Translations under genes and position numbers: made by a program
Notes under the pieces: generated by a model
What the model was told of the DNA's origin: nothing
Database searches by the model: none
What the model saw: the letters and a program-made list of their open reading frames with translations, nothing else
In this document: in pieces, positions 45,648 to 64,000 of the stretch
How the letters are laid out: every line of letters starts with the position of its first letter
How positions within the stretch are numbered: the stretch's first letter is position 1
Origin: Candidatus Multivoraceae bacterium
GTDB taxonomy: Bacteria > Acidobacteriota > Thermoanaerobaculia > Multivoradales > Multivoraceae
Direction: 5' to 3'
Assembly (NCBI GenBank): GCA_965219625.1
Contig: OZ244782.1
Coordinates: 484,712-548,711, forward strand
DNA: 64,000 bases

Positions 45648-46499
45648 TCAACCTCCGAAGGTGAACGACGGCGCGGCGGTCGGTTCCGGCCCGAGCTGCT
45701 GCCGCGCCCGTACCGCATAGCCGCTCTCCGGGTACTCGTCGACGATGCGTTGAAACGCCTCGCGCGCGCCATCCTCGTCGCCCAGCTGTTCCAGGGTGGC
45801 CGCGAGCTCGAAGAGGAGGGCCTCCTTCGGCAGCGCCGGCGACTCCATCGCGACGGCGCCGCGCAGTTCGGCGGCAACTTCCTCCGCCCGCCCCTCCGCG
45901 CGGTCGAGTCCGTACAGATTCAACCGAACGGCGACCCCGAGCGCATGGTCGTCGCCATTCTCCGCGAGATACTCCGACCACAGCTCCCGCGCCAATTCCG
46001 TGTCGCCGTCCGACGCGGCGATGCGGCCAAGGTAGACGGCCGCCAAGCTGCCCGAGACGGTCGCGCCGTACTCCTCGCGAACTGACTCGAGCCTGGACTT
46101 CGCCGCCGCGCGGCGTTCGGCCTCCGAGGCGAAGCTCAGTTCCGCTTCATCGGCGGCCTCGGCCTCGCCTTCGGCCGTCGCCTCCACGGCATCGTCAGCC
46201 GCCGCCGTATCGTCCGGTGCGCTGTCCGGCGGCGTGTCGAACAGGTCGGCGATCGGGTCCGTGTCCGGTTCCTCGATCGGCGCCCGGTAGACCTCGAGAG
46301 CCTCGCTGAGCGCGAAGCTCGCGGACGCCTCGCGTCGGTCCTCGTACTGCAGGTAGAGCATCAGGCCGACGCCGAGCAGGATCGCCGCCGCGGTCCCCAA
46401 CAGGATCTGGCGAATGTGGTCGACGAACCAGTGGGCAGCGGAAACTACCGCCTCGCGCACCTCGTCGCGCCGCATGTCCTCCGGTCTCAACGTGTTCAT
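45648..46499 (-). CDS. membrane-anchored tetratricopeptide-like protein (YfgM-like)
   Basis: Short cytoplasmic N-terminus, one TM helix (ILLGTAAAILLGVGLMLYL), an acidic linker, then TPR-like helical repeats. Confidence 0.55.
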   Translation of the reverse strand: MNTLRPEDMRRDEVREAVVSAAHWFVDHIRQILLGTAAAILLGVGLMLYLQYEDRREASASFALSEALEVYRAPIEEPDTDPIADLFDTPPDSAPDDTAAADDAVEATAEGEAEAADEAELSFASEAERRAAAKSRLESVREEYGATVSGSLAAVYLGRIAASDGDTELARELWSEYLAENGDDHALGVAVRLNLYGLDRAEGRAEEVAAELRGAVAMESPALPKEALLFELAATLEQLGDEDGAREAFQRIVDEYPESGYAVRARQQLGPEPTAAPSFTFGG

Positions 46500-46629
46500 C
46501 CAAAGTCCCTCCCGAGCAGCCGGACCCTACCAGCATCCGCGGCAGGCGCCGCGCCCACAAGCTGGGAGGGACGATTCGGCGGCGATGCGACCTCCGGCTG
46601 GCCGGCGTCCGTCGCCGCTGACCGACCGA

Positions 46630-46654
46630 CCCGGCCCGGGAGTGCCGGGCCGGC
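46630..46654 (-). terminator. GC-rich hairpin 8 nt downstream of the giant-gene stop (candidate intrinsic terminator, no U-tract)
   Basis: CCCGGCCCGG-GAGTG-CCGGGCCGGC, a 9/10-bp stem immediately after the stop codon at 46663-46665. Confidence 0.3.
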
Positions 46655-46662
46655 GGTCTTCG

Positions 46663-49600
46663 TCAACGTTCGAGCCGCCCCCTCGCCGGCGGTTCGCTGC
46701 AGGCGGCGATTCGCGTGAGCTGGATCTCGTCGAACCACGCGTCGCCCTGGTTGTCCCCGTCCCGCGCGGCGCGGATCCGCACACCGCCGACGGAGGCGGG
46801 TATGCACTTCGTCACCGCCCGGCATTCCCACGCTCCGACGGAGCTGGCCACGACGTGCGCGTCCTCGAACGAAGCGTCACGGCCACGACCGTCGTCGAAG
46901 TCGACGAACACGTTGTCGCCCGCGTGCTCGCGCAGCACGCAGGCCGACAACTCGTAGACGCCGCCCTCAACCGGAATCCACTCCGCGGCGACCGCGGAAT
47001 CCGAACCCACGTCGCCGCCGGACACGGCGCCGCGAAGCAACAGGCCCCAGGAACCCGAGTCGGCCGAATCGGCCGAGGAACCCGGCCCGGCAGGCGAACG
47101 CGCAACGACCGCGTCTCCCGAATCCGACGTCCAACCTGGCGCCGCGGACATCCTCACCTCGCCGCCCTCCAACTCGGAAGCAACGTCGTCCAGGCCGCCG
47201 TTCACCACCGCCGTCTTCGGCCAGCCCGGAGAGAACGGATCGAACCACGGCGAACTCGGACGATAGGACGGCACAGGCACGAGCGACTCCTCAACCGCCC
47301 ACCACTCCGCAACTTCCCCCGGACCGGACGCCGAGCGACGCGAATACACCGCGCCACGGCCACGAGCCAGGTAGAACTCGTCGTACGCCTCCGCCCTGCT
47401 CGCATCCGCCCAGAAGCGGACCTCCAGCACGTCCTCGAACGTCAGACCGCCAACCACCGGCGCCGTGAACGACGCGTGGTGAGCGACGACCTCCAGGCGC
47501 ATCGTCGTAGCAAGAGCGCCCGCCTCGTTCCGCAGACGGTTCGACAGGTAACGACCGGTCACCGAACTCTCCAACACGTCGCCTACCGCCATGTAGCGGT
47601 TCATCCACCGGAACGGCCTGTCGAGCGACACGCTCAGGCGATCCGAAGACCCGCCCTCGACCGTGCCCCAGTAGTCCAAGCCGCCTTCCGTCTCCTCGAA
47701 CAGGTCGTACCGATCTCCCCCCGGAGTCCCCAAGAGCGCCATCGGACGGCCCCACAGCTCACCTCGCCAGAAGGACCGAAGCTCGTGGGAGTCCGCGGCA
47801 GGCCACAACCGACCGTCGACCAGGCGGCTCCGCACCCCCGAAGCGCTCCCGTGAGGCGACAGCCAGTACTCGAACATGTCGAACAGGTCGCCCGACGTCG
47901 TCGAGGGCTCGGACGAATCGGATGGCTCCACCAGCCCGGGATCCACTCCGCCGGCACGCGACGACGCGGCGGCCGAACCGACGGCCCCCTCGGACACCTC
48001 GATCGTGAACGTAAGCGTCGCCGAGTTCCCGTTCCCGTCCGACGCCGTGTACGTGTACGCCGTCTCCGCCTGAACCGCCGTCGGCGTACCGGACAACGTC
48101 CGCGTCGACGCGGAGAAACTCACGCCCGCCGGAAGGCCAGGCGTCACCGCGTAACTCAACGCGCCGCCCGTACCGGTCGCCGCCGGCAAGACGACGGACC
48201 CAACCGCCTCGTCCCTCACCCATGTCTGCGCCGCGATCGTCTCGTCCCCGAACGACGGGTCCTCCACCGCGATCGTCACGCTTCCCGTCGACTCGCCGAA
48301 CCACGCCACGCCGTCATGCACCATCTTCCACTCGAACGCATGCGGGCCTACCGTCGACGGCGCCGTGATCTCCAACGTGAAGTCCACCGTCTCTCCCGGC
48401 CCGACGCTTGCCGACACGTCCGCGTCGTCCGCGCTCGCCGGCAGCTCCACACGGTTCAAACCCCACGTCACGTTGTCTTGAGGGTTCTCTGAGCCCAGCC
48501 GGTACCCCTCGGCTTCCGTCCACGTCGTCGTCCCCACATTCTTCATCGTCACCGTCACCGACGCCGTCGAACCCGCCGCCATCTTCGAAGGCACACCGGA
48601 CGTCGACACGAAGGACGCATCGTCCACCAGGACCGCCTCTACCGTCATGCTGAACGTCAACGACGCCGAATCCCCGCCCGCGTCCGTCGCCGTGTACACG
48701 TACGCCGTCGTCGCCATCGCGTCCGTCGGCGTACCGGAGATCGTCCGCGTCGACGCGGAGAAACTCAAACCCGCCGGCAGTGCAGGAGAGAGCGAGTAGC
48801 TCAACGCACCGCCCCTACCGCTTGCCGCCGGCAAAACGACCGCCTCGATTGCCTCATCCTGCACATACGTCGCGTCCGCGATCGTCTGATCACCGAACGA
48901 CGGGTCCTCCACCTCGATCGTCACGCTCCCCGTCGGCTCGCCGAACCACGCCACGCCGTCATGCACCATCCGCCACGCAAACGCGCGCGCGCCGACCGTC
49001 GACGGCGCCGTGATCGTAAACGTAAAGTCCACCGTCGCGTTCGGCACAACGCTCACAGGACCGTCCGCGCTGACCGGCAGATGCGCCCGATTCGTACCCC
49101 ACGTCACGTTGTCCTGAGAATCCTGCGAGCCCAGGCGATACAACTTCGCCTCCGTCCACGTCGTCGTCCCCACATTCTTCATCGTCACCGTCACCGACGC
49201 CGTCGAACCCGCAACCATCTTCCCCGGCACACCCGACCAAGAGACGAACGATGCGTCGTCCACGGGAAACGCCGCCACCCTGATGCTGAACGTCAACGAC
49301 GTCGAATTCCCGGCCCCGTCCGTCGCCGTGTACGTGTACGCCGTCGCCGCTTGAACCACCGTCGGCGTCCCGGACAACGTCCGCGTCGACTCCGTAAACG
49401 TCAGCCCCGCTGGCAGCGGAGGAGTCACCGCGTAACTCAACGCACCGCCCGAACCGCTCGCCGCAGGCAACACGACCGGCTCGATCGGAACGTCCTTCAC
49501 ATACGTCTGGTCGATGATCGTCTGATCACCGAACGATGGGTCCTCCACCTCGATCATCACGCTGCCCGTCGACGAGCCGAACCACGCCACGCCGTCGCGA

Positions 49601-52600
49601 ACCATCCGCCACTCGAACGCATGCGGGCCTACCGTCGACGGCGCCGTGATCTCGAACCTGAACTCCACCGTACCCTTCGGAGGCACGATCACCGGAGCGT
49701 CAACGCTCCCCGGCAGATGCGCCCGATTCGTCCCCCACGTCGTGTTGTCTCGAACGCTCTCCGAACCCAGACGATAAAGCCCCGCCTCGGCCCACGTCGT
49801 CGTCCCCACATTCTCCATCGTCACCGTCACCGTCGCCGTCGAACCCACTGCCATCTTCGAAGGAACCCCGGACGTCGACACGAACGAAGCGTCGTCCACC
49901 GGAATCACCTCCACCTCGATCGCCCCCCCGCTCGGCGTCGACGAGCCGAACCATGCCACGCCGTCACGAACCATCTGCCACACGAAACCGTAGCTCCCAG
50001 CCGCCGACGGCGCCGTGATCGTGAACGTGAACTCCGCCGTCGTGTTCGGCGCCACCTCGCCAGGCAACGGCACCCGGTTCAAACCCCACGTCAGGTTGTC
50101 CTGATTGCCTTGCGAACCCAAGGAGTACCGATCCGACGACCGCCACGTCGTCGTACCCACATTCTCCATCCGCACCGTCACCGACGCCGTCGTACCCGCC
50201 GCCATCTTCGACGGAACCCCAGACGTCGACACGAACAACGCGTCGTCCGCCGACACCGACGCGACCCGAATGTGAAACGCAAGCGACGCCGAGTTCCCGG
50301 CCCCGTCCGTCGCCGTGTACGTGTACTCCGTCTCAGGCATCGTCGCCGTCGGCGTCCCCGACACCGTACGCGTCGACTCCGTGAAACTCACACCCGCCGG
50401 CAGGGCAGGAACGAGCGAGTAGCTCAACGCTCCGCCCGTACCGCTCGCCGCAGGCAACACGACCGGCTCGATCGGAACGTCCTTCACCCACGTCTGGTCG
50501 ACGATCGTCGCGTCGCCGAACGACGGGTCTTCCACCTCGATCGTCACGCTACCCGTCGACGAGCCGAACCACGCGACGCCGTCGCGGACCATCTGCCACT
50601 CGAAAGCTCGACTGCCCGTCGTCGACGGCGCCGTCATCGCCAACGTGAAGTCCACCGTCGTGTTCGGAGGCACGCTGACGGAACGGCCGGGAGCCTTCGG
50701 GTCCGCTGGCAGAGACACCCGATTCACACCCCAGGTCAGATTGTCCTGAACGTTCTGCGAACCCAGGCGATAGGAACCCGTCTCGCTCCACGTCGTCGTC
50801 CCCGCATTCTCCATCGTTACCGTCACCGCGAACGTCGAACCCGCAGCCACCTTCGAAGGTACCCCCGACCAAGACACGAACGAAGCGCCGTCACGAGACA
50901 CCGCCTCCACCGTGATGTGGAACGTCAACGACGCCGAATTCCCCTTCCCGTCCGTCGCCGTGTACGTGTACTCCGTCTTCGGCATCGTCGCCGAAGGAGT
51001 CCCCGACACCGTCCGCGTCGACTCCGTGAAACTCACTCCCGGCGGCAGAACAGGAACGAGCGAGTAGCTCAACGCTCCGCCCGTACCCCTCGCCGCAGGC
51101 AACACGACCGGCTCGATCGGAACGTCCTTCACCCACGTCTGGTCGACGATCGTCGCGTCACCGAACGACGGGTCCTCCACCGCGATCGTCACGCGACCCG
51201 TCGACAAGCCGAACCACGAAACGCCGTCGCGCACCATCTGCCACTCGAAACCGTAGCTACCCACGACCGCCGGCGCCGTGATACCGAACGTGAAGTCAAC
51301 CGTCGCACCCGGAGCCACCTCGCCGGGCAACGGCGCACGATTCCGACCCCACCTCACGTTGTCCTGCGGATCCTGCGAACCCAGACGGTACTCGCCCGAA
51401 GGCGTCCACGTCGTCGTCCCCTCGTTCTTCATCCGCACCGTCACCAAAGACGTCGTACCGGCAACCATCTTCCCAGGCACACCAGACCACGAAACGAACG
51501 ACGCATCGTCCTCCAACGACGCAACGACTTCGATCGTGAACGTGAGCGACGCGGACGAACCAACCCCGTCCGTCGCCGTGTACGTGTACTCCACCGCGTC
51601 CTGCAACTCCGTCGGCGTCCCTGACACCGTACGCGTCGACTCCGAGAAACTCACCCCCGTCGGCAACGCAGGCGTCAGCGAGTAGCTCAAAGCCCCGCCC
51701 GTGCCGCTCGCCGAAGGCAACACGACCGGCTCAAGGGGCACGTCCTTCACCAGCGTTTGATCCGGAATCGTCCAGTCGCCGAACGACGGGTCTTCCACCT
51801 CGATCGTCACGCTACCCGTCGACGAGCCGAACCACGCGACGCCGTCGCGGACCATCTGCCACTCGAAAGCTCGACTGCCCGTCGTCGACGGCGCCGTCAT
51901 CGCCAACGTGAAGTCCACCGTCGTGTTCGGAGGCACGCTGACGGAACGGCCGGGAGCCTTCGGGTCCGCTGGCAGAGACACCCGATTCACACCCCAGGTC
52001 AGATTGTCCTGAACGTTCTGCGAACCCAGGCGATAGGAACCCGTCTCGCTCCACGTCGTCGTCCCCGCATTCTCCATCGTCACCGTCACCGCGAACGTCG
52101 AACCCGCAGCCACCTTCGAAGGTACCCCCGACCAAGACACGAACGAAGCGCCGTCACGAGACACCGCCTCCACCGTGATGTGGAACGTCAACGACGCCGA
52201 ATTCCCGGCCCCGTCCGTCGCCGTGTACGTGTACTCCGTCTTCGGCATCGTCGCCGAAGGAGTCCCCGACACCGTCCGCGTCGACTCGGAGAAACTCACC
52301 CCCGTCGGCAGAGCAGGCGTCAGCGAATAGCCCAACGCTCCGCCCGTACCCCTCGCCGCAGGCAACACGACCGGCTCGATCGGAACGTCCTTCACCCACG
52401 TCTGGTCGACGATCGTCGCGTCACCGAACGACGGGTCCTCCACCGCGATCGTCACGCGACCCGTCGACAAGCCGAACCACGAAACGCCGTCGCGCACCAT
52501 CTGCCACTCGAAACCGTAGCTACCCACGACCGCCGGCGCCGTGATACCGAACGTGAAGTCAACCGTCGCACCCGGAGCCACCTCGCCGGGCAACGGCGCA

Positions 52601-55600
52601 CGATTCCGACCCCACCTCACGTTGTCCTGCGGATCCTGCGAACCCAGACGGTACTCGCCCGAAGGCGTCCACGTCGTCGTCCCCTCGTTCTTCATCCGCA
52701 CCGTCACCAAAGACGTCGTACCGGCAACCATCTTCCCAGGCACACCAGACCACGAAACGAACGACGCGTCGTCCACAACGAACGCCGCCACCTCAAGCGA
52801 AAACGGAAGCTCAGCCGCGTCACCGTCACGGTCCGTCGACATGTACGTGTACCCCGTCTCCGGCTGAACCTCCGTCGGCGTGCCAGAAAGCACCCGCGTC
52901 AAGCCGTCGAACTCCAAACCCGAAGGCAGCGACTCGACAACCTCGTACGTCAGCTCCCCGTTCCCGCCAACCGCCGCCGGCAGCGTCACCGGAACCATCG
53001 GCTCGTTCAGGGTGAGGAACTGCGGAACGATCGTCTGAACCCCGAACTCCGGCGCCGAGTCCTCCTCCACCGCGATCAACAACGGGAGCGAATCCTCGTC
53101 TCCGTCACGGTCCCCAACCGTGTACGCATACTCCGTCGCCGGCTGAACCGCCGTCGGCGTGCCGGAAAGCACTCGCGTCGCGGCCTCGAACTCCAAACCC
53201 GAAGGCAGCGACTCGACGATCGCGTACGTCAGCTCCCCGTTCCCGGCGACCGCGGACGGCAGCGTCACCGGCGACATCGGCTTGTTCAGGCTGAGGAACA
53301 GCGGATCGATCATCGTGACCTCGAACCCAGGAGCGGAGTCCCCTTCCACCTCGATGCTGACGACAAGCGACGCCTCGTCGCTGTCGCGGTCCGTCGCCGC
53401 GAACGTGTAGTCCGTCGCCGGCTGGGCCGTCGTCGGCAGGCCGGAGAGACCGCACGGCGGGGTCGGGTCGAGCGTCACACCCGCCGGCAACGCGGGAGAC
53501 TCCGGCGCCACGGAACATGTCACGTCCGCATTCCCGCCCGTCACGCCGAGGCTCAGGTCGACCGACGTCCTGCCTTCCGTCCACACGACCGGACTCTCGA
53601 CCGCGCCGAACGTCGGCGTCGTGTCCGGTTCCACCTCGATCGTCAACAGGAGCCAATCCTCGTCACCATCGCGGTCCGCAACCGTGTACGTGTAAGGCGT
53701 CTCCGGCTGCACCGCCGTCGGCGTGCCGGAAAGCGCCCGCGTCGTAGCCTCGAAGGCCAAACCCGAAGGCAGCGACTCGACGATCGCGTACGCCAGCTCC
53801 CCGTTCCCGGCGACGGCCGACGGCAGCGTCACCGGCGACATCGGCTTGTCCTGGCTCAGGATCAGCGGAGCGATCGACTCGTCTTCGAACCCAGGAGCGG
53901 AGTCCCCTTCCACCTCGATGCTGACGACAAGCGACGCCTCGTCGCCGTCGCGGTCCGTCGCCGCGAACGTGTAGTCCGTCGCCGGCTGGGCCGTCGTCGG
54001 CAGGCCGGAGAGACCGCACGGCGGGGTCGGGTCGAGCGTCACACCCGCCGGCAACGCGGGAGACTCCGGAGTCACGGAACATGTCACGTCCGCATTCCCG
54101 CCCGTCACGCCAAGGCTCAGGTCGACCGACGTCCTGCCTTCCGTCCACACGAGCGGACTCTCGACCGCGCCGAACGTCGGCGTCGTGTCCGGCTCCACCT
54201 CGATGCTGACGACGAGCGTCGCCGTGTCCCCGTCGTAGTCCGTCGCCGTGAACGTGTAGTCCTCCGCCCCTTGAACCGCCGTCGGCGTACCCGAGAGAAT
54301 GCACGGAGCGGTCGGCTCGAGCGTCACGCCCGAGGGCAGCGCGGGAGACTCCGACGTCAACGTGCATGTCGGCCCGAAATTGCCGTCCTCCAGGCCGAGA
54401 CTCACCTCGACCGGTCGGTTCTCCGTCCAGACCTGACTCCCGACCTGCCCGAACACCGGAGACGTGTCCGGCACGACGCCGATCGTGAACTCCCGCGAAG
54501 CAACGTCACCGTCGTCGTCCGTTGCCGTCCACGTGTACGTCCTCGGCGCCTGCGGCGCCGTCGGAACACCCGAAATCACCCGGCCCGACCGGGACATCCC
54601 AGCCGGCAGAACGGCGGAGAGACTGTACGTCAACGGCTGGTTCCCGCCCGTCGCCGCCGGCAGCGTCATCGAGCCCGGATAACCGACGATCCACGTCCGC
54701 GAGGGGAACCACTCCAGGACCGGCGTCTTGTCTTCCAAGACCGTCACGGTCACCGTCGCGGATTGGTAAACCTCGGGGCCGGCCAGCGTGATCAACCATA
54801 TGCCGGCCTCGTGGCCATATGCCGGCCTCGTGGCCGCTCACCGACACCTGCTGCGGCGAAGAGTAGTTCGATGCGTCGAAGTCCAGGCTGGAGGGACTCG
54901 CCGACACCTTCGAGATGTCCTCCTCGGTCACCGTCACCGTAGCGCCACCCGTGGACGGCGGCTCTGACAGGGACGCTCCGAAGGTCACCGACTCCCCCTC
55001 GATCACGGTCAAGTACAGAGGTTCCGGCGGACCGAGATCATCCAAACGAATCGTACCTAAATCAATGTACGGGCGCGGTTGGTCGACCACCGTTACGTCC
55101 ACCGTCACTGTCGAGTCGCACCCGCCGCCGATTGAAGTCAGGGTGACCGAGGTCTGCTCGTCGTTCCGGTCGTCGTCCCACACACCTTCCAGCGTAATCT
55201 GCTGCGCGGCCGCACTCGTGAATTGGAGGGGCGAATCGGAGGCGTTCTTCAGCTTGACCGCGCCCAGATCGTTGATTACGACGGGCACATTTACCCGGCC
55301 TGTCGGCGTCCTGGACAGCGAGACGGTCAAGTCGGCTTCGCCGCCTTCGACCAAGACCAGCGGATTCGGCGACACGACCAGACTGCACGGCGGCCCGACC
55401 GTGATGTCGAACGTCACGACGCCCGCGTCGGTCGGGGCCGTGTTGCCGTCCGCGTCCGTCGCCGTGAACGTGTACGCCGCCGTGTCCTCATCCGCAGACG
55501 GCGTCCCCGACACCGTGCATGACGAAGCGTCCAGCGACACCCCTGCCGGCAATGCCGGCGCGTTCGAGCAGGTCACATCTCCATTGCCGCCCGTCACCCC

Positions 55601-56272
55601 GAGGTCCAGATCGACAGCCACACCCGTCGTCCAGTCCTGATCCGCGATGCTCCCGAACGTCGGCACCGTGTCCGTACCCACCCAGATCGTCCGGGCCGAC
55701 GTCGAGTCGCCGAACGGCGTCGAGCCGACGAAACCGGAAACCGCGGGCGAGGACGCAACAACAGGTCCCGGATTCGGGCCCGGGTTCGTCTCGGTGATCC
55801 TGCGCATGCGAAACTGAAAGCTGTAGCTCCCAGCGGTCGAAGGCGCCGTGATCGTGAACGTGAAGTCGTGGACGGCGTCCGGCGCCACGGTGCCGAAGAC
55901 CGGCACGCCGGCCACTGTCGACCCGCTGTCGAGACCCCAGGTATCGCCGACCCAAAACAACGTAAAGAACGTCACTGTGTTCGGGAGGAACCGAGTCGAC
56001 CAGCTCTGCGTCCCCGTGTTCTTCATGCGGACCGTCACTGTCCTCGTCTCGCCGGGCGACATGAACTCCGACGCGGACGGCAAGCCGGTCCAGGACACGA
56101 ACTCCGCATCGTCGGCGCCCATCGCTGGCGACACCATGAAGCCGAGCGCCAGACAAGCCGCCGCGACCGCCACAAGCCGAGTCCCACCGTGGTGCTGCAT
56201 CGTTCTGCTCCCGCTCATCATCCGCCTCCTCGCGTCTGATTCACTACCGCTCATCCGAACCGTCCTCTTCAA
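46663..56272 (-). CDS. giant secreted cell-surface repeat protein (~3,200 aa): signal peptide, FW domains alternating with CADG/He_PIG Ig-like domains, CBM4/9-like C-terminus; frameshifted here by a 19-bp tandem duplication
   Basis: ORFs 54506-56272 and 46663-54795 fuse in frame (…SVSGHEAGIW|LITLAGPEVYQ…) when one copy of the 19-bp repeat at 54797-54834 is removed. N-terminal signal peptide (MKRTVRMSGSES…LALGFMVSPAMGA). At least 20 repeats of the LPxGxxFxxxTRxxSGTPTxxQxxTxYTYTATDxxGxxAS type (dystroglycan-type cadherin-like). Repeats with four or five conserved Trp residues (ASFVSWSGVP…NxGTTTW…YRLGSQ…WG…FEWQMVRDGVxWFG) match the FW/NBR1-like domain. The C-terminus ends …GDAWFDEIQL, like CBM4/9 modules. 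Confidence 0.8.
50512..53037. repeat. two tandem near-identical 1,263-bp (421-aa) units inside the giant gene; each unit encodes FW-CADG-FW-CADG
   Basis: Shadow ORFs 50549-50872/51812-52135, 50891-51136/52154-52399 and 51296-51490/52559-52753 are pairwise near-identical with a constant 1,263-bp offset. The encoded protein shows two ~421-aa blocks that are almost identical. Unit boundaries are approximate. Confidence 0.7.
54797..54834. repeat. perfect 19-bp tandem duplication (CATATGCCGGCCTCGTGGC x2) inside the giant gene, causing a +19 frameshift
   Basis: Units at 54797-54815 and 54816-54834 are identical. Deleting one unit restores a single reading frame across 46663-56272. Confidence 0.9.
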
Positions 56273-58320
56273 CTACGCCCAGCCCGCCAGCCGGCGCACC
56301 GACTTCGCCCGACCGCGCCTCGCACACCTCCGAAAACGCGGTCACGTCGACCACCGCGGCAGACGGTTTGCCGGCCTCCCGTCTGTATCTCTTGGACTCA
56401 TACGTCTCCAGGTCCAAGACACCGAGAGAGAGCCGCAGGTCCGTCGCCGAGGCCGCGAGCACCCAATGGTGACCGTTCACCGCACAGCCGTCCAGCACCT
56501 TGACGAGCACCTCCCAATTCTCCGGGCCGAAGAAGTAGACGATGCCCGACTCGTCCGTGCCTACAGAGGCTACCCTCGCGCCTATACGCTCCCCCGTCTC
56601 TGACCAGTAGTCCACCCAGACCGAGTAACGACGATTCCGGAGACACAGCCTCGTTTCCGTCGGCACGCACGGGCCGACCGCCTCCTCCGCCACAACAGAA
56701 ACCGGCGCCTCGGCCGCCGCCGACCAGCCGCTCCCATCCGACAACGAAGCAGCAGCGGCGGCAGACGCCGCCCCAGCCTCCGAGCCGTCGCAGGCCCTCG
56801 GAAACGCGTTCACGTCGACGATCGCCGGCGCCGGAGACCCCGGCTCGTTCTCGTACGCGCGGAACGCACCCGTCGCCGTGTCCGTTACCCGAATCCGGTA
56901 CCCGAGGTCCGTCGTCGACGCCCCGAGCACCCACACCCGGCCGTTCACCGAACAACCGTCGAGCACCTTGATCAAGACCTCCCAGTTCTCAGGGTCAAAG
57001 AAAGACAGCAACCCCGAGTCGTTCGTACCCACGGGAACGACCGCCGCCCGCCCCGAATCCCCGTCCAGGCTCCACCACTCCGCCGTCACCTCGAAACGGG
57101 AATCCCGAAGGCAACGCGTCTCCCCGTCCGCAGCGCACGTCCCCGCCGGAGACGCCGCCTCGACGAACACCGTCCGCGAAGCGGATGACGAATCCGAACC
57201 GTCGCTAAACGTCAGAACCACTTCATAGAACCCCGGGGAGGACCAGGAGTGGACCGGCGACTCCAGCCGAGACGTCGTCCCATCGCCGAAGTCCCACGTC
57301 CGCTCCGTCGCTGAAGCGTCGCTCGTATCGACGAACGTGACCGGTTCGCCCGTCACCGTGCGGCAGAGCTCCGCCCCCGCACAAGGCGCACCGAAGTCGA
57401 ACGAAGGCGCAGGAATCGCAACCGTACGCGCACGCACCGTCGCCGGCGGACCGGCGCCGCGCCCCGTCCACGCCCGCACCTGGAACGCGTACTCCCTACC
57501 CGGGTCGAGCCCCGTCGCCCGGTAGCTCCCGGATTCGTTCGGCACCGTCTTCCAGCGGTCCTCCGCAACGTCGAACGGAAGCTCCCGCGCCGGCTTCCAA
57601 CGAACCTCCTGCCGGCCTGCCGTAATCGGCGATTCCACTTCCCATGTCAGATCGACCGCCACGCTCAAGGCCGACGCCGAAAGACCAACGATCTTCGGCG
57701 GCGGAGGGCGCCAGGAACTCCGAGAGTAGCCGCGATCGTTGAACGCGAACACGCGGAACATCTTCCCCGCAGGCACGACGGCCGTCTCCACGTCCGCGGA
57801 CACGACCAGCGCCCTCCTCCAGATTTCGGCGCCATTGCTGACCTGGACTTCAAAGCCCGTCTCGTCGTCCGAGTTGTCGCGCCAGCGAAGCCGCACTGTG
57901 TCACCGAGCCGCTCTTCCGTAACGCCCGACGGCGCCTCAGGCCCGAAACCCCGCGAACCCAGCGTCAGCCGGCCGTATGAAGCTGAACTGCTCTTGCCGG
58001 GGCGATGGGCGACGGCGGTGAACACATAGCGGCCGCCGCGCGCCAAGTTCTCGAAGTCCACCCGACCGCGACCCTCGGCGACCTGAACCGAATCGCCCCA
58101 CCCCTCCAAACTCGCGAAAACCGAGTGAGACTCGGCCTCTGCGTCGGGCGCCCAGGAAACCCGTGCCGTCGTCGGACCGGCGGCGGTCACCGCAAAGCCC
58201 GCGACGCCGAGCGCGGCGTCTTCATCGCCCGAAGGCAACGTCACGACATCGCTGCTCTCGGATTCGCCCCACTTGTTCCACGCGACCACCTGCACGCCGT
58301 ACTCCGCGTTCGCGTCACGC
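56135..58320. repeat. segmental duplication, copy A (3' ~2.2 kb of the metalloprotease gene plus the first 138 nt of the giant gene)
   Basis: Near-identical to 60440-62587 at a 4,305-bp offset (identical shadow ORFs 56398-56955 / 60703-61260). Identity is 100% over the 3' ~1.3 kb and decays toward the 5' side. Confidence 0.85.
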
Positions 58321-60134
58321 CCAGGCACGAAGCCGAAGAACCGAAAGGACTCGCTGTTCGCCGGCGCCTCTCTCCTGAAGACCACCTCGCCGGCCCGCAG
58401 GAGGCGCACATCGAAGCCCGTTTCATTGTCCGAATTGTCCCGCCAACGGACATCCAAGCTGTTCGGCGGGAACGTCACCGAAACGTCCGAAGGCGCCGCA
58501 ATCGGATCGCCAGGCAACCAGATTCCAGCCCAGTCGCTCCACAGCGACCGAGCCGAGCCGACCAACGAACGCACCCGGAAGTGGTAGATGCCAGGAAGGT
58601 CTCCTCCCCCGAAAGACCACTCCGCCTCCGTCCGCCCCTCAGCGCGCCGGATGTCCTGCCACCCCGTCAGCCTGTTCACGCGCTCCACCTCGTAGCCGTC
58701 CCCGTCCGCGGCGCTGTCTTCCCAGCTCAAGCGAGCCGACGAACCGTCCCGTTGCAACCGAACTCCGGTCGGCTGAGCCGGGATGTCCGCCGGCGGCAAG
58801 TAATCGCTGTACCGCACGCCGACGTGGACCGTCTCCCGCAGCAAACGCTCGTTGTCCCGCTCGCCTTCGATCCCCAACACCGCCCCGTACAAACGAAGCC
58901 GCGGCGTCGAGTAGAACGGCTCGGTCTGGCCGCTCAGGCTCATCGCCGTACCCAAGGCCGGCATCGCGTCGTAATCCACATGGCCATATGCATACGGCCA
59001 CCGGCTCGGCGCCCGCCAACCTGGCGGTTGGTGGCCAGCGCCCAGACCGTGGCCCACCTCGTGGACGAACGTCGCAGCGTAGTCACCGCCGCACGCCGAC
59101 GGGTGGTTCGACGTATAGCCGCGGGCATAGGGAGAGAAGCTCTCCGCCGTAAAGAAGGGGCGCAACCATCCGTGTAAACCGCAGCCCGCCACCCCCGGCA
59201 GCGACCCACTCTCCCCTGTAAACAGGTGCACCAGGTCCGCCCGATGCTCGTGACGTAACCGCTGGAGCTCCCCGTCCCAGACGATCAGGTCGATCAGGCC
59301 GATTCCCGCGTCCAACTCCGGCCTGCTCAGATCCCGCCCCGCACGGTCCAGCGTCGACGAAGCCTCGACGACGTGCACGATGCGGGGCGTCACCTCAAGG
59401 CCGTTGTTCCGGAACACGAGCGATAAGTAATCGGCCGCGTGCTGGATCGCAATCTCCGCTCCGCCGATGGGCGCCCAGTACTTCGCAGCCTCCTTCGTGT
59501 ACGCGACGAGGATGTCCAGGTAATCGTGATCGCGGTGGCTCTGATGGCTCGCCGTCCCGCGCGGCGCATCCGCGCCGCGGCCAGCCGCATTCGCACGGCT
59601 CTCCGCCCCGACGCCCGCCGCGGCCTCCTCCTCTTGCTCCACACCGCACCACGGCTCCCCTTGACCCGGCCCGGCCCCGCCCAAGGGCGACATCCCGCCA
59701 AGGCCGTCCGAAGCCGAATGGATCCGATACGCACCGCCCCCAGGAGCCCCGAAACGCCCGATCAGCCGCCCTTCGTGAATCGTCAGGACGACCGTGTCGT
59801 ACCCGGCCTCGCGGTTCCCCCCGAACCAGACCCCATCCCCGTTTCCCCGGTCCTCGAAGGCGGAACGTTCGGCGTAGATCACATCACCGTCCGGCGTCGG
59901 CGCCTCGAGAACCAGGGGAGCGCTACGAAGAAGATCCAAGTCCGCCTGAATCGCAGTCACCGGCGCCGGACCCATCGATCCCCCGCCCTCCACGGACGAC
60001 GCTTCCGCCACGGAAGGCAAGAGCGTCAGCAAACGCTGAGCCTCCACCGGCAACGCCGCCAGCCAGACGAACACCACGGCGAACGGCAGAGCCGCGAGCC
60101 GGCGAACAGCGGGCAGGGGGCGCGGATTGGACAT
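56244..60134 (-). CDS. secreted reprolysin-like zinc metalloprotease with Fn3 repeats, a PKD domain and twinned C-terminal domains of unknown family (paralog A)
   Basis: Signal peptide (MSNPRPLPAVRRLAALPFAVVFVWLAALPVEAQ; ATG at 60134 preferred over the GTG at 60158). HEVGHGLGAGHQ with the Met-turn AMSLSG. Fn3 repeats. PKD (WDFGDGTTS…GFYEVVLTFSDG). Two C-terminal ~115-aa repeats (CLRDSRFEV…SFFDPENWEVLIKVLDGCSVNGRVW…; CLRNRRYSV…YFFGPENWEVLVKVLDGCAVNGHHW…). The stop overlaps the giant-gene start by 29 nt. Confidence 0.8.
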   Translation of the reverse strand: MSNPRPLPAVRRLAALPFAVVFVWLAALPVEAQRLLTLLPSVAEASSVEGGGSMGPAPVTAIQADLDLLRSAPLVLEAPTPDGDVIYAERSAFEDRGNGDGVWFGGNREAGYDTVVLTIHEGRLIGRFGAPGGGAYRIHSASDGLGGMSPLGGAGPGQGEPWCGVEQEEEAAAGVGAESRANAAGRGADAPRGTASHQSHRDHDYLDILVAYTKEAAKYWAPIGGAEIAIQHAADYLSLVFRNNGLEVTPRIVHVVEASSTLDRAGRDLSRPELDAGIGLIDLIVWDGELQRLRHEHRADLVHLFTGESGSLPGVAGCGLHGWLRPFFTAESFSPYARGYTSNHPSACGGDYAATFVHEVGHGLGAGHQPPGWRAPSRWPYAYGHVDYDAMPALGTAMSLSGQTEPFYSTPRLRLYGAVLGIEGERDNERLLRETVHVGVRYSDYLPPADIPAQPTGVRLQRDGSSARLSWEDSAADGDGYEVERVNRLTGWQDIRRAEGRTEAEWSFGGGDLPGIYHFRVRSLVGSARSLWSDWAGIWLPGDPIAAPSDVSVTFPPNSLDVRWRDNSDNETGFDVRLLRAGEVVFRREAPANSESFRFFGFVPGRDANAEYGVQVVAWNKWGESESSDVVTLPSGDEDAALGVAGFAVTAAGPTTARVSWAPDAEAESHSVFASLEGWGDSVQVAEGRGRVDFENLARGGRYVFTAVAHRPGKSSSASYGRLTLGSRGFGPEAPSGVTEERLGDTVRLRWRDNSDDETGFEVQVSNGAEIWRRALVVSADVETAVVPAGKMFRVFAFNDRGYSRSSWRPPPPKIVGLSASALSVAVDLTWEVESPITAGRQEVRWKPARELPFDVAEDRWKTVPNESGSYRATGLDPGREYAFQVRAWTGRGAGPPATVRARTVAIPAPSFDFGAPCAGAELCRTVTGEPVTFVDTSDASATERTWDFGDGTTSRLESPVHSWSSPGFYEVVLTFSDGSDSSSASRTVFVEAASPAGTCAADGETRCLRDSRFEVTAEWWSLDGDSGRAAVVPVGTNDSGLLSFFDPENWEVLIKVLDGCSVNGRVWVLGASTTDLGYRIRVTDTATGAFRAYENEPGSPAPAIVDVNAFPRACDGSEAGAASAAAAASLSDGSGWSAAAEAPVSVVAEEAVGPCVPTETRLCLRNRRYSVWVDYWSETGERIGARVASVGTDESGIVYFFGPENWEVLVKVLDGCAVNGHHWVLAASATDLRLSLGVLDLETYESKRYRREAGKPSAAVVDVTAFSEVCEARSGEVGAPAGGLGVVEEDGSDER

Positions 60135-60301
60135 TTCGACTGAAAACCACCTTAGCACCCCTGCACGCCTTTCCCCACAGGAGCTGCGAGAAACCGCCGA
60201 CAGCCATGCCTGTCAAGCTCGTGGCGACGGCGCTGCCCGTTACGGAAGCGCTCGCAAACCTCCCGGCCCGCCACCAGGGGCACCAGCCAGTTGCCGGCGT
60301 T

Positions 60302-60577
60302 CTATTCCCTCTCCCACGTGGTCGTTCCCGTGTTCGACGCGACGACCGTCACCGTCGCCGACCCGCCGGGAGCGATGAAGTCCGGAAGAACGGGTTCCGT
60401 CACGATCGCCGCATTGTCTGCGCCGCGGACGGCCGTCGACATGAAGCCGAGCGCCAGACAAGCCGCCGCGACCGCCACAAGCCGAGTCCCACCGTGGTGC
60501 TGCATCGTTCTGCTCCCGCTCATCATCCGCCTCCTCGCGTCTGATTCACTACCGCTCATCCGAACCGTCCTCTTCAA
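60302..60577 (-). pseudogene. truncated remnant of the giant gene's 5' end (signal peptide + partial FW domain, 91 aa) created by the segmental duplication
   Basis: The first 46 codons are identical to the giant gene start (MKRTVRMSGSES…LALGFM). It then diverges (…ASNTGTTTWERE*) and stops. It overlaps the upstream paralog B stop by 29 nt, like the parental arrangement. Confidence 0.6.
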
Positions 60578-62587
60578 CTACGCCCAGCCCGCCAGCCGGC
60601 GCACCGACTTCGCCCGACCGCGCCTCGCACACCTCCGAAAACGCGGTCACGTCGACCACCGCGGCAGACGGTTTGCCGGCCTCCCGTCTGTATCTCTTGG
60701 ACTCATACGTCTCCAGGTCCAAGACACCGAGAGAGAGCCGCAGGTCCGTCGCCGAGGCCGCGAGCACCCAATGGTGACCGTTCACCGCACAGCCGTCCAG
60801 CACCTTGACGAGCACCTCCCAATTCTCCGGGCCGAAGAAGTAGACGATGCCCGACTCGTCCGTGCCTACAGAGGCTACCCTCGCGCCTATACGCTCCCCC
60901 GTCTCTGACCAGTAGTCCACCCAGACCGAGTAACGACGATTCCGGAGACACAGCCTCGTTTCCGTCGGCACGCACGGGCCGACCGCCTCCTCCGCCACAA
61001 CAGAAACCGGCGCCTCGGCCGCCGCCGACCAGCCGCTCCCATCCGACAACGAAGCAGCAGCGGCGGCAGACGCCGCCCCAGCCTCCGAGCCGTCGCAGGC
61101 CCTCGGAAACGCGTTCACGTCGACGATCGCCGGCGCCGGAGACCCCGGCTCGTTCTCGTACGCGCGGAACGCACCCGTCGCCGTGTCCGTTACCCGAATC
61201 CGGTACCCGAGGTCCGTCGTCGACGCCCCGAGCACCCACACCCGGCCGTTCACCGAACAACCGTCGAGCACCTTGATCAAGACTTCCCAGTTCTCAGGGC
61301 CGAAGAAAGACAGCAGGCCGGAATCGTTCGTACCCACGGGAACGACCGCCGCCCGCCCCGAATCCCCGTCCAGGCTCCACCACTCCGCCGTCACCTCGAA
61401 CCGGGAGTCCCGAAGGCAACGCGTCTCCCCGTCCGCAGCGCACGTCCCCGCCGGAGACGCCGCCTCGACGAACACCGTCCGCGAAGCGGATGACGAACCC
61501 GAACCGTCGCTCACCGTCAAGACGACCTCGTAGAAACCCGGCGTAGACCACGAGTGGACCGGAGACCGCAAACGTGACGTCGTCCCGTCGCCGAAGTCCC
61601 ACGTCCACTCCCTCGCCGAGGAATCGCTCTCGTCGACGAATGTCACCGGCTCGCCCGTCACCGTGCGGCAGAGCTCGGAACCCGCGCACGGCGCCCCGAA
61701 GTCGAACGACGCCGCGGGAATCGAGGCTGTCCGCGCACGGACCGTCACCGGCGGGCCGGCGCCCCGCAACGTCCACGCCCGCACCTGGAACGCGTACTCC
61801 CTACCCGGGTCGAGCCCCGTCGCCCGATAGCTCCCGGATTTGTTCGGCACCGTCTTCCAGCGGTCCTCCGCAACGTCGAACGGAAGCTCCCGCGCCGGCT
61901 TCCAACGAACCTCCTGCCGGCCTGCCGTAATCAGCGATTCCACTTCCCATGTCAGATCGACCGCCACGCTCAAGGCCGACGCCGAAAGACCAACGATCTT
62001 CGGCGGCGGAGGACGCCAGGAACTCCGAGAGTAGCCGCGATCGTTGAACGCGAAGACGCGGAACATCTTCCCCGCAGGCACGACGGCCGTCTCCACGTCC
62101 GCGGACACGACCAGCGCCCTCCTCCAGATTTCGGCGCCATTGCTGACCTGGACTTCAAAGCCCGTCTCGTCGTCCGAGTTGTCGCGCCAGCGAAGCCGCA
62201 CTGTGTCCCCGAGCCGCTCTACCGTAACGCCCGACGGCGCCTCAGGCCCGAAACCCCGCGAACCCAGCGTCAGCCGGCTGTATGAGGCTAAACTACTGCT
62301 GCCGGAGCGGTGGGCGGAAATCGAAAACACATAGCGGCCTCCGCGCGCCAGGTTCTCGAAGTCCACCCGACCGCGACCCTCGCCAACCCGAACCGAATCG
62401 GAGGACCACCCGTCCAAACTCGGCCGAACCCAGTGATAGTCGGCCTCTGCGTCAGGCACCCAGGAAACCCGCGCCGTCGTCGGACCGACGGCCGTCACCG
62501 TCAAGCTCGCGACGCCGGGCAAGACCTCCGCATCGCCCGTAGGCAACGTCACGACATCGCTGCTCTTGGATTCGCCCCACTTGTTCC
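60440..62587. repeat. segmental duplication, copy B
   Basis: See copy A. Copy B continues for ~48 bp after the IS insertion (63929-63976), then diverges from copy A. Confidence 0.85.
60549..62587 (-). pseudogene. reprolysin-like metalloprotease paralog B, 3' portion; interrupted by an ISL3 insertion
   Basis: C-terminal 430 aa are 100% identical to paralog A. The PKD and Fn3 regions are progressively divergent. The reading frame runs into the IS at 62588. Homologous sequence resumes after the IS at 63929 and continues past the window end. Confidence 0.75.
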
Positions 62588-63927
62588 GGGTCTTCAGGCT
62601 GTTGTGTGGGGAGCGCGCCACGCGGTTAGTCGCCGGTGACCCATAGACTGGCGGGATGAAGAGTGCGAGGACGTTCGAGAGGCTGTTGGGGATCAAGCCG
62701 CCTTGGCGGGTGCGGGAGGTGGTGCTCCGTATGGACGAGCCGCATCCGCGACGTCGCGGCGCGGTGGTTGGCGGCACGGTGGAGATTCACGTCGAGCATC
62801 GTGGGGAGACCCGCTGCCCCGAGTGCGGCGAGCGGTGTCCGGGCTACGACAGCAGACACCGCAGGTGGCGGCATTTGGACACGATGCAGCACCAGACGCG
62901 TGTCCACGCGGAGGTGCCTCGGGTGCGCTGCGTCGAGCATGGCGTACTCCAGTTGAAGGTGCCTTGGGCGGACGAGGGTTCTCGTTTCACGGCGCTGTTC
63001 GAGGCAGAGGCCATCGGCTGGCTTCGTGACGCGAGCGTTCAGGCGGTGGCGCGACGCATGGGTCTGAGCTGGGATCAGGCGGCGGGGATTCAGCGCCGGG
63101 CAGTGGATCGCGGCCTTTCGCGGCGCCGGTTGCGGCCGCCGCGGCTGCTGGGCGTGGACGAGACGGCGTTTCGGAGGCGACACGAGTACGTGACGGTGGT
63201 CAACGACCTGGAGCGAGGCGTGGTGGCCCATGTGGCCGACGGTCGCGGCCGGTCGGCCATCGACGGCTACTTCGAGGGTCTGGGCGAGACGACCTGCGCG
63301 GGCATCGAGCAGGTGGCGATGGACATGTGGCCGGCGTACATCTCTTCGGTGAAGGCGTACACGAACGCGGTGATCGTGCACGACCGGTTCCACATCGTCG
63401 CGCACCTGAACCACGCCGTGGACCTGGTTCGGCGCGCCGAGCAGCGGGAGTTGCTTGAGGCAGGCGATCCGCGTCTGAAGCGAAGCCGCTACCTGTGGTT
63501 GATGGGGAAGGGCCGCATGAACCGCTCGCAGCGGCGACGTTTCGCTGCTCTTCGCACGAGTCACCTTCGCGTGGCTCGGGCCTGGGCGATCAAGGAGATG
63601 GCGCGGGACTCGTGGGGCTATGCGAGCCGCGGTTGGGCAGAGCGGCGCTGGAAGCGCTGGTACGGCTGGGCGGTCCGCAGCCGTTTGGCGCCGATCAAGC
63701 AAGTGGCCAAGATGATCAGGGATCACTGGGAGGCCGTCATCAACGCCGCCGTGTCCAGCATCTCCAGCGCCAGCGCCGAGGGCATCAACGCGAGGATCCA
63801 GGAGATCAAGCGAAGAGCGCACGGCTAGCGAAACCGAGAGCACTTCCGCCTCGCCATCTACTTCCATCTCGGCGGACTCGATTTGACTCCCGATTCACTG
63901 CAAGCCCACACACAACCCTGAAGCGCC
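62588..63927 (+). mobile_element. ISL3-family insertion sequence (1,340 bp) with imperfect ~24-bp terminal inverted repeats and an 8-bp target-site duplication CTTGTTCC
   Basis: IRL is GGGTCTTCAGGCTGTTGTGTGGGG (62588-62611). The reverse complement of IRR is GGCGCTTCAGGGTTGTGTGTGGGC (63904-63927). Direct repeats CTTGTTCC sit at 62580-62587 and 63928-63935. Flanking sequence is contiguous with paralog A's homologous site. Confidence 0.85.
62656..63828 (+). CDS. ISL3-family transposase
   Basis: 390 aa. N-terminal zinc-finger (CPECGERCPGYDSRHRRWRHLD) and the LGVDETAFRRRH…DMWPAY…HDRFHIVAHLNHAVD core, which are typical of ISL3 transposases. Confidence 0.9.
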   Translation: MKSARTFERLLGIKPPWRVREVVLRMDEPHPRRRGAVVGGTVEIHVEHRGETRCPECGERCPGYDSRHRRWRHLDTMQHQTRVHAEVPRVRCVEHGVLQLKVPWADEGSRFTALFEAEAIGWLRDASVQAVARRMGLSWDQAAGIQRRAVDRGLSRRRLRPPRLLGVDETAFRRRHEYVTVVNDLERGVVAHVADGRGRSAIDGYFEGLGETTCAGIEQVAMDMWPAYISSVKAYTNAVIVHDRFHIVAHLNHAVDLVRRAEQRELLEAGDPRLKRSRYLWLMGKGRMNRSQRRRFAALRTSHLRVARAWAIKEMARDSWGYASRGWAERRWKRWYGWAVRSRLAPIKQVAKMIRDHWEAVINAAVSSISSASAEGINARIQEIKRRAHG

Positions 63928-64000
63928 CTTGTTCCACGCGACCACCTGCACGCCGTACTCCGCGTTCGCGTCACGCTCGCGCGCGGAGACGTCTAACCGA

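Follow-up and report, generated by a model that had tools for sequence, protein, structure and literature searches.

Does the insertion that interrupts the second of two tandem metalloprotease genes in this acidobacterial genome represent a mobile element able to move on its own, and what does it leave of the gene that it entered? The stretch analyzed here (referred to as the window, whose positions are used throughout) is 64 kb long. Altogether, the data are probably best explained by an ISL3 copy that sits in gene B, carries a nonsense codon truncating its transposase (Y391*) and would be mobile only with the help of a sibling copy.

An ISL3-family insertion sequence and its relatives

As judged from its sequence, segment 62588–63927 (+ strand) is one complete copy, 1,340 bp long, of an ISL3-family insertion sequence (IS); the family is known, the member is new and without a name. 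In blastn comparisons, 17 of 22 related loci align with it from base 1 to base 1340. The element is delimited by (i) a left terminal inverted repeat (IRL, 62588–62610, + strand), GGGTCTTCAGGCTGTTGTGTGGG; (ii) a right terminal inverted repeat (IRR, 63905–63927, + strand), CCCACACACAACCCTGAAGCGCC, which includes the family's normal stop codon TGA (63919–63921); (iii) an 8-bp direct repeat, CTTGTTCC, present on the left at 62580–62587 and on the right at 63928–63935, which constitutes the target-site duplication (TSD). The reverse complement of IRR, GGCGCTTCAGGGTTGTGTGTGGG, matches IRL at 18 of 23 positions, so that the repeat is imperfect; the binomial probability of at least 18 matches out of 24 at this composition is ~3e-6. 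The octamer occurs five times in the whole 64 kb, and an 8/8 match at fixed positions has a chance of ~4e-5. The window contains one copy of the IS. The element, inverted repeats, direct repeats and protein motifs described in a first-pass annotation of this DNA are thus all present, and the boundaries are borne out by 19 related copies ending at the same bases, 18 of which (17 of 18 relatives, plus the copy in contig L085) are flanked by an 8-bp duplication of their own.

Some of these copies lie in MAGs of Candidatus Multivorans/Thermoanaerobaculia, others in ENA contigs that are almost identical to this genome. Their IRL is identical in all Ca. Multivorans copies and differs once (62608, G>T) in locus L001, relative to which the window copy shows a 3-bp indel and 11 coding-region substitutions, nine of them at third codon positions. 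Copy 2 (L085) has CACTTTCT as its TSD, and L084 holds a decayed copy; the 396-aa product encoded by the last gene of contig L083, ~10 kb further down, does not come from another copy of the IS. Since several copies lie at different sites, either within one genome or in genomes that are almost identical, the activity suspected from the window copy is supported for the lineage: the set demonstrates past activity of this ISL3 lineage in genomes of Thermoanaerobaculia (Ca. Multivorans-like). It also shows that the lineage prefers AT-richer 8-mers within GC-rich DNA, the TSDs averaging 43% GC in genomes of 64–68% GC.

The transposase reading frame (62656–63828, + strand) encodes 390 residues (62656–63825) followed by a TAG stop. 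It comprises, on the + strand, a zinc ribbon (aa 52–95, 62809–62940; Pfam Zn_ribbon_ISL3, PF14690, 43.7 bits), a helix-turn-helix motif (HTH, aa 101–149, 62956–63102; HTH_Tnp_ISL3, PF13542, 57.8 bits), both scoring above cutoff, and a DDE domain (aa 165–390, 63148–63825; DDE_Tnp_ISL3, PF01610, 230 bits for a cutoff of 23). NCBIfam transpos_ISL3 (NF033550) also matches, with 298.6 bits for a cutoff of 180, and the earlier assignment to the ISL3 family is upheld by these scores above the curated Pfam and NCBIfam cutoffs. The motifs CPECG, DETAF and HDRFH occupy aa 54–58, 168–172 and 242–246, respectively, and the CPECG...CVEH residues are invariant among homologues.

The predicted catalytic residues are D168 (63157–63159), D223 (63322–63324) and E375 (63778–63780), all on the + strand; among 56 homologues the two aspartates are invariant and the glutamate is conserved in at least 90%. 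An AF2 model of a full-length relative (mean pLDDT 88) displays an RNase-H-like fold, its strands and helices in the expected order, in which D168 lies on strand 1, D223 after strand 4 and E375 on helix 371–387, the catalytic assignment being made by position in the model and not by residue-level superposition. At the sequence level no PDB chain is hit, and no experimental structure of an ISL3 transposase turned up in that search; among solved structures, the model is matched best by the ISCth4 transposase (Foldseek E = 3e-7, ~400 aligned columns), and retroviral integrase cores are matched as well.

A nonsense codon in the transposase gene

The frame ends at codon 391 (63826–63828, + strand), where a T>G change at 63828, private to this copy, gives TAG. 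The codon is TAT (Tyr391) in 18 of 18 relatives checked, and also in contigs L083 and L085. This change is one of only two substitutions unique to the window copy, the other being A239V (position 63371). Beyond the stop, the orphaned 3' end (63829–63921, + strand) still translates in frame into 30 sense codons, RNREHFRLAIYFHLGGLDLTPDSLQAHTQP, followed by the normal TGA. The product is therefore 390 aa long, versus 419–421 aa in full-length relatives, and read-through of TAG would give a 421-aa protein, extending the Pfam match from 229 to all 240 profile positions (positions 230–240, +13 bits). The 30 lost residues include the RNRxxFRxAIxFHLGGLD motif, near-invariant in the 56 homologues, so that the expected C-terminal tail, GYRNRxxFRxAIYFHLGGLDL, is absent from the 390-aa product; part of it (394–405) is modeled as a confident helix by AF2. 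The first-pass annotation had taken an ORF without internal stops as a sign that the element is active. The absence of internal stops is literally true of the 390-aa frame, but TAG replaces a conserved tyrosine 30 codons early, and activity of this copy is not supported by its ORF.

Because the premature stop removes the conserved last 30 residues of the transposase, the element is probably not self-mobile, and the window copy is most likely non-autonomous and would be moveable only in trans. The truncation affects the autonomy of this copy, not its family membership. Note that TAG comes after all three predicted catalytic residues, and that loss of activity of the 390-aa protein is a prediction from conservation of the missing tail. 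Two recorded products, the intact P0121 and P0124 (the window copy's 365-aa product), are found on one 3,701,229-bp contig, to which the window is assigned by exact identity of the 365-aa product only; a sibling encoding an intact protein could, on these sequences, act in trans on the window copy.

Stop-codon reassignment or suppression was also considered and rejected: TAG closes 10 of the 27 long ORFs in the window, about one third, A and B included, and the window contains no tRNA gene, hence no suppressor tRNA.

Another contig bears on the status of codon 391. The near-identical ENA contig L082/L083, which alone covers this site independently, reads TAT here; it connects the left flank that the IS has in gene B with the right flank (DUF222/HNH) of IS copy 2. 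Its IS carries another copy's alleles and right flank, and the right-hand portion of the contig seems to have come from a different IS copy. The hybrid may be either an assembly mis-join or the product of IS–IS recombination. In the same sample, the likely N-terminal part of B ends a separate contig. When this organism is assembled, the repeated IS demonstrably gives rise to contig breaks and hybrid joins.

If the TAG were an assembly or polishing error, or if the 390-aa protein were functional, the window copy would be a fully autonomous, active ISL3 element. Its intact inverted repeats and TSD fit such a copy, as does the position of the D, D and E residues and of both DNA-binding domains ahead of the stop; the TAT of L082/L083 and other single-base discrepancies among these assemblies, such as the 1-bp indel by which the window and L082 differ at 48288 and a 1-bp deletion in L086, fit an error. 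However, TAG is what the given sequence reads, and an identical truncated product of 365 aa is recorded for the 3.7-Mb assembly, L082/L083 bears another copy's alleles and flank and so does not report on this one, and the lost segment, near-invariant as it is, falls within both the Pfam and NCBIfam models. We therefore consider an autonomous copy rather unlikely. The TAG call depends on a single base, probably in a low-coverage long-read metagenome assembly.

About as doubtful is the view that the hybrid junction is real, the natural population being polymorphic for a rearrangement (inversion or deletion) anchored at this insertion and caused by IS–IS homologous recombination; in addition, the Y391* copy might be maintained, either as a non-autonomous element or through a regulatory role of its truncated transposase. 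The latter role can also be envisaged independently: a truncated transposase that retains the surfaces for inverted-repeat binding and multimerization would regulate or inhibit intact siblings in a trans-dominant manner. The truncated ORF does keep both the zinc ribbon and the HTH, along with the larger part of the DDE domain, and the bias of the substitutions relative to L001 toward third positions suggests recent selection on the lineage. But the stop is one private mutation that none of the other copies has, with no sign of selection for it, and no such regulator is described in the ISL3 literature examined (bioRxiv 10.1101/2023.06.07.543989, PMC3812183), which makes this role very improbable. 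We thus retain a non-autonomous copy with a truncated transposase as the preferred reading.

The interrupted host gene

Genes A and B are tandem duplicates, ~93% identical, arising from a duplication of ~4.3 kb. The uninterrupted paralog A (56244–60158, − strand) encodes 1,296–1,304 aa, with a reprolysin-like domain at residues 215–378 (Pfam Reprolysin_5, a marginal 27.8 bits for a cutoff of 27; Reprolysin_3, 25.9 bits for a cutoff of 22.4), fn3 domains and a PKD domain (935–998); its translation contains the HExxHxxGxxH-type motif HEVGHGLGAGH. Gene B is split by the IS into (i) a 3' part (60549–62587, − strand), an open frame of 679 codons encoding the FN3, PKD and C-terminal domains, with 92.8% nucleotide identity to A 56009–58279, and (ii) a 5' part, encoding the N-terminus, of which the last bases are visible (63928–64000, − strand; 87.7% identity to A 58272–58344) and which continues past the window end. 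Region 58180–58350 of A aligns without a break to the left part of B (to 62587) and its right part (from 63928), the ends of which share a single A octamer, 58272–58279. This is the equivalent of the empty site (codons 627–629, W-N-K), and the octamer is found in A only there. When the IS and one TSD copy are removed in silico, B becomes one open frame, in agreement with the proposed insertion into a protease paralog; the dN/dS between this IS-free B and A is 0.32.

That the junction is an assembly artefact through a repeated IS, or that the direct repeats belong to the host repeat structure, is exceedingly improbable: a related assembly does hold a hybrid junction through the same IS, with the likely N-terminal part of B on a separate contig (L082/L083 sample), but here the two flanks have their homologues in neighbouring segments of A, with exactly one 8-bp overlap, the octamer is unique to the homologous site in A, excision restores the reading frame, which a random mis-join would not, and an 8-bp TSD is the rule in the other copies.

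The insertion point, equivalent to A codons 627–629, lies downstream of the reprolysin-like domain. Read on the minus strand, the N-terminal part of B ends in ...VVAWNK, followed by the IS-encoded residues GASGLCVGLQ*, and ~675 C-terminal residues, comprising the FN3/PKD and C-terminal domains, are cut off. From its sequence, B is truncated by the IS after the protease domain. Of the earlier claim that the insertion inactivates copy B, truncation at codon ~627 thus stands; loss of function does not follow, the cut lying downstream of the protease domain. The catalytic region of B is outside the window. Contig L086, the probable N-terminal part of B, which does not overlap the window, has kept HEVGHGLGAGH and carries, upstream of this motif, a 1-bp deletion past which the frame stays open. 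Scans of JGI metagenomes for the IRL and for an empty site of the B/A type were blank, and no allele of B lacking the IS came to light; an empty B site would read ...CCCCACTTGTTCCACGCGACC... with B-specific SNPs.

The findings matter chiefly for annotation: the locus is an ISL3-family IS with a pseudogene or truncated-gene transposase, and gene B an IS-disrupted paralog, which replaces the chimeric 715–742-aa ORF, starting inside the IS, proposed by gene callers. Awareness of IS-driven contig breaks and joins is useful for MAG curation.

Proposed history and relation to known elements

In the history that we propose, gene B, the second copy of the tandem duplication, would have encoded a secreted reprolysin-like metalloprotease with FN3 and PKD domains. 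An intact transposase would bind the ~23-bp terminal inverted repeats through its zinc ribbon and HTH, and its DDE/RNase-H-like domain, into which an all-helical bundle is inserted, would carry out catalysis. Judging by those ISL3 members that have been studied, it presumably moves through a circular copy-out-paste-in intermediate. Circular (IR–IR junction) intermediates are known for ISPst9, IS1411 and IS31831, and copy-out-paste-in is presumed for ISL3 members (bioRxiv 10.1101/2023.06.07.543989, PMC3812183). In the present case, the IR–IR junction of such a circle, if formed, would show GGCGCTTCAGG... abutting the other terminal repeat. The IS would have landed in antisense orientation at codon ~627 of B, staggered cuts 8 bp apart followed by repair producing the CTTGTTCC duplication, and the B product would be cut after the catalytic domain and gain 10 IS-encoded residues. 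Either after insertion or after copying, the element would have acquired A239V and Y391* (TAT to TAG), its intact ends still allowing mobilization in trans by a sibling copy with an intact transposase. Within the IS and its surroundings, a sigma-70 scan detected nothing resembling a promoter, a result that has no bearing either way for an acidobacterium host.

The insertion implies no new mechanism. Like ISL3, IS1411, IS31831, ISPst9 and ISKox3, the element is ~1.3 kb long, with a single transposase ORF (zinc ribbon, HTH, DDE_Tnp_ISL3) whose normal stop lies in the right inverted repeat, imperfect terminal repeats starting with GG, an 8-bp TSD and multiple copies per genome; it differs in its host, a Thermoanaerobaculia-type acidobacterium, and in the nonsense codon at residue 391. 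The closest named relatives annotated in PLSDB plasmids are ISKox3-like, with ~36–37% protein identity (tblastn). Much closer are the nameless ISL3 elements of Ca. Multivorans/Thermoanaerobaculia (L002–L021), which share 85–88% nucleotide identity over 1,340 bp and an identical IRL, measure 1,339–1,340 bp, encode transposases of 419–421 aa, each have an 8-bp TSD and are present in 4–6 copies per genome; unlike the window copy, they are intact at codon 391. At this level of identity, the ISfinder convention would class them as separate IS species or isoforms.

The ISCth4 transposase (PDB 6xgx, 6xg8, 6xgw) combines an RNase-H-like DDE core with a helical insertion, as in our model, although it belongs to a different IS family, IS256, with 9–11% sequence identity and a TM score of ~0.45. 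The IS256 family also uses copy-out-paste-in transposition.

Boundaries and family of the inserted element

The element that interrupts paralog B is 1,340 bp long (62588–63927, + strand), begins with GGGTCTTCAGGCTGTTGTGTGGG... and ends with ...CCCACACACAACCCTGAAGCGCC; its left end matches the reverse complement of its right end at 18 of 23 positions (binomial P for at least 18 of 24, ~3e-6). The direct repeat CTTGTTCC abuts both ends (62580–62587 and 63928–63935), and the whole 64 kb of the window contains this octamer only five times. When the window is compared with itself by blastn, 60323–62587 matches 56009–58279 (92.8% identity) and 63928–64000 matches 58272–58344 (87.7% identity), so that the two flanks correspond to adjacent segments of paralog A overlapping by exactly 8 bp (58272–58279). 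Such an overlap is the expected trace of a simple insertion accompanied by an 8-bp target-site duplication (TSD). The 1,340-bp element, imperfect inverted repeats, 8-bp direct repeats and colinearity with the A site described in the first-pass annotation are thus all present where it had placed them.

That the direct repeats merely reflect host repeat structure is refuted by related copies inserted elsewhere. A protein search yielded transposase relatives at 79–99% identity, whose loci were taken from GTDB genomes and ENA contigs, the nearest named hosts being Candidatus Multivorans and other Thermoanaerobaculia MAGs (Acidobacteriota). The element aligns from the first to the last base of its 1,340 bp in 17 of 22 loci, with a DNA identity of 85–88% in other genomes and 98.8% in one ENA contig (L001). 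Just outside the same terminal bases, 17 of 18 copies are flanked by a perfect 8-bp direct repeat whose sequence changes from site to site, and a further copy, in L085, has the TSD CACTTTCT. Since related copies reproduce both the ends and the TSDs, these features belong to the element itself and are no accident of the host repeats. The 19 TSDs have a mean GC content of 43%, in host genomes of 64–68% GC, which suggests that this lineage prefers AT-richer targets.

Several related copies have particularities of their own. One Ca. Multivorans copy (L013, OZ242353.1) lacks a TSD, which may be the footprint of IS–IS recombination. Another (L020, OZ245033.1) is interrupted at element position ~1131–1137; the ~1.3 kb of foreign DNA found there may be a nested insertion. 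In L001 1634–9726 (ENA ERZ25072258 ctg6781), the 98.8%-identical copy adjoins a defence-type cluster comprising type I restriction R and S subunits, a KAP NTPase and AbiEi/AbiEii.

The transposase ORF (62656–63825, + strand, 390 aa) matches the Pfam domains Zn_ribbon_ISL3 (aa 52–95), HTH_Tnp_ISL3 (aa 101–149) and DDE_Tnp_ISL3 (aa 165–390, 230 bits), as well as the NCBIfam equivalog 'ISL3 family transposase' (298.6 bits for a cutoff of 180). The family call made previously is therefore correct, and the CPECG zinc finger and the DETAF/HDRFH core are found in the ORF. The element is new within the known ISL3 family, since it is not close to the named members in the plasmid collection (protein identity ~36% to ISKox3-like elements), whereas unnamed elements of Ca. 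Multivorans MAGs are 85–88% identical to it in DNA. The sequence search detected no solved ISL3 transposase structure; the best solved structural analogue of the transposase model is the ISCth4 transposase (IS256 family).

The insertion in the window is a routine one. The element encodes DDE-type ISL3 transposase domains, has intact inverted repeats and is flanked by the duplication left by an 8-bp staggered cut; in related genomes it occupies multiple sites. Circular intermediates are known from ISL3 members, which presumably use copy-out-paste-in (bioRxiv 10.1101/2023.06.07.543989; PMC3812183), and by analogy the element would use the same route. JGI metagenome scans for the empty site and the left inverted repeat found nothing.

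A premature stop in the transposase

The earlier view that an ORF without internal stops suggests an active element does not hold: the window copy, as sequenced, encodes a C-terminally truncated transposase. Translation through to the element end reads ...IKRRAHG*RNREHFRLAIYFHLGGLDLTPDSLQAHTQP*, the normal stop of the family being the TGA at 63919–63921 (+ strand), inside the right inverted repeat. The transposases of close relatives are 419–421 aa long and all have a tyrosine at the position of the window's stop; codon 391 is TAT in 18/18 related copies and TAG in the window copy only (Y391*). With X in place of the stop, the Pfam match covers profile positions 1–240 of 240, up from 1–229, and gains 13 bits. 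TAG is an ordinary stop in the host genome: it terminates 10 of 27 long high-GC3 ORFs in the window, A and B among them, and no tRNA gene lies in these 64 kb.

The 30 lost residues include R392, N393, F397, R398, A400, F403, H404, G407 and L408, which are invariant among 56 homologues, down to 58% identity. In the AlphaFold2 model of P0003, a relative of full length (mean pLDDT 88, pTM 0.80), the corresponding segment forms a confident helix (394–405) that comes straight after helix 371–387, bearer of the predicted catalytic Glu375. This conservation suggests that the truncation would abolish transposase activity. Y391* would then make the window copy non-autonomous, and the copy could be moved in trans by an intact sibling.

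Sibling copies and a conflicting contig

Sibling proteins come from the 90% cluster to which the nearest protein belongs. From its Met26 onward, the window transposase is identical to P0124 (365 aa). P0121 (396 aa), which has Ala239 and Tyr391, is intact, and the two proteins are recorded on a single 3,701,229-bp NCBI/ENA contig. We infer that the window stems from this 3.7-Mb assembly, which, if so, holds at least one intact copy. The cluster also contains a 232-aa fragment. It comes from a decayed copy in L084 that has lost element positions 293–636 internally; close to this copy is part of a second ISL3 element, 87% identical, and the region (L084 4171–4374 and 5632–6978) may be an IS graveyard.

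In a four-way alignment, the only bases private to the window copy are 63371 C>T (A239V) and 63828 T>G (Y391*). ENA contig ERZ26695579 ctg119234 (313 kb; L082/L083), 99.98% identical to window 46245–63928, has C at 63371 and T at 63828; from one base past the IS end its similarity to the window is lost altogether, its right flank being a DUF222/HNH gene region in place of the N-terminal part of B. The IS and right flank of this contig are 99.7% identical to copy 2, the sibling in L085; the contig therefore combines the left flank of copy 1 with the right flank of copy 2. Its junction reflects either real IS–IS recombination or a mis-join by the assembler, working at ~4x coverage across a 1.3-kb repeat. 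That the window arrangement is itself the artefact is ruled out, as it matches A on either side of the IS and its flanks together give back the reading frame. Assemblies of the host organism should be read with repeat-induced contig joins in mind.

The window and L082 also differ by a 1-bp indel at 48288, inside the – strand ORF 46663–54837: the window has one 2,724-aa He_PIG-repeat ORF and L082 has genes of 2,238 and 359 aa. Single-base errors thus exist in one assembly or the other.

Paralogs A and B

Paralog A (56244–60158, – strand) is uninterrupted and has a signal-peptide-like N-terminus, a weak though above-cutoff match to a reprolysin-like M12B domain (residues 215–378), an HEVGHGLGAGH motif, FN3 repeats and a PKD domain (residues 935–998). 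The insertion site corresponds to A codons 627–629 (W-N-K). When the IS and one TSD copy are taken out of B, its 699 visible codons form one uninterrupted open frame, with a dN/dS of 0.32 relative to A and the last ~200 codons identical; given this open frame and dN/dS, B was still a coding gene under constraint in the recent past. In the interrupted gene, the part of B upstream of the IS would terminate ...VVAWNK-GASGLCVGLQ*. The insertion had been said to inactivate B: it does truncate B, but after the protease domain, and inactivation does not follow from a site downstream of the catalytic domain.

The N-terminal part of B is likely to be represented by the end of contig ctg113148 from ENA (L086), which is 92% identical to A; a gap of ~330 nt separates this contig end from the window, without overlap. 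A G-run at 10962, equivalent to A codon 321, lacks 1 bp, but past it the frame is open for 172 codons and HEVGHGLGAGH is kept. This deletion is either a very recent frameshift or, possibly, an assembly error.

The C-terminal ORF of B (60549–62777, – strand) extends into the IS by ~110–190 nt, on the strand antisense to the beginning of the transposase gene, and gene callers report it as a 715–742-aa protein. It is a chimera made by the insertion; a sigma-70 promoter scan found no promoter-like site in or around the IS. The annotation to correct includes the truncated transposase, the IS-disrupted paralog and such chimeric ORF calls.

A and B, which are 92.8% identical, lie on a ~4.3-kb tandem duplication (56009–60322 and 60323–64000+) that also takes in the 5' end of a neighbouring gene: 60302–60577 copies the N-terminus of a 588-aa He_PIG-type protein (54506–56272). 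The final ~600 bp of A and B are identical and dS reaches 0.57 in the middle, a pattern that suggests gene conversion. Finally, extensive internal direct repeats, with units of ~560–1,260 bp and 69–93% identity, are present at 47995–54600 in the gene for the giant He_PIG-repeat protein and in its neighbour.
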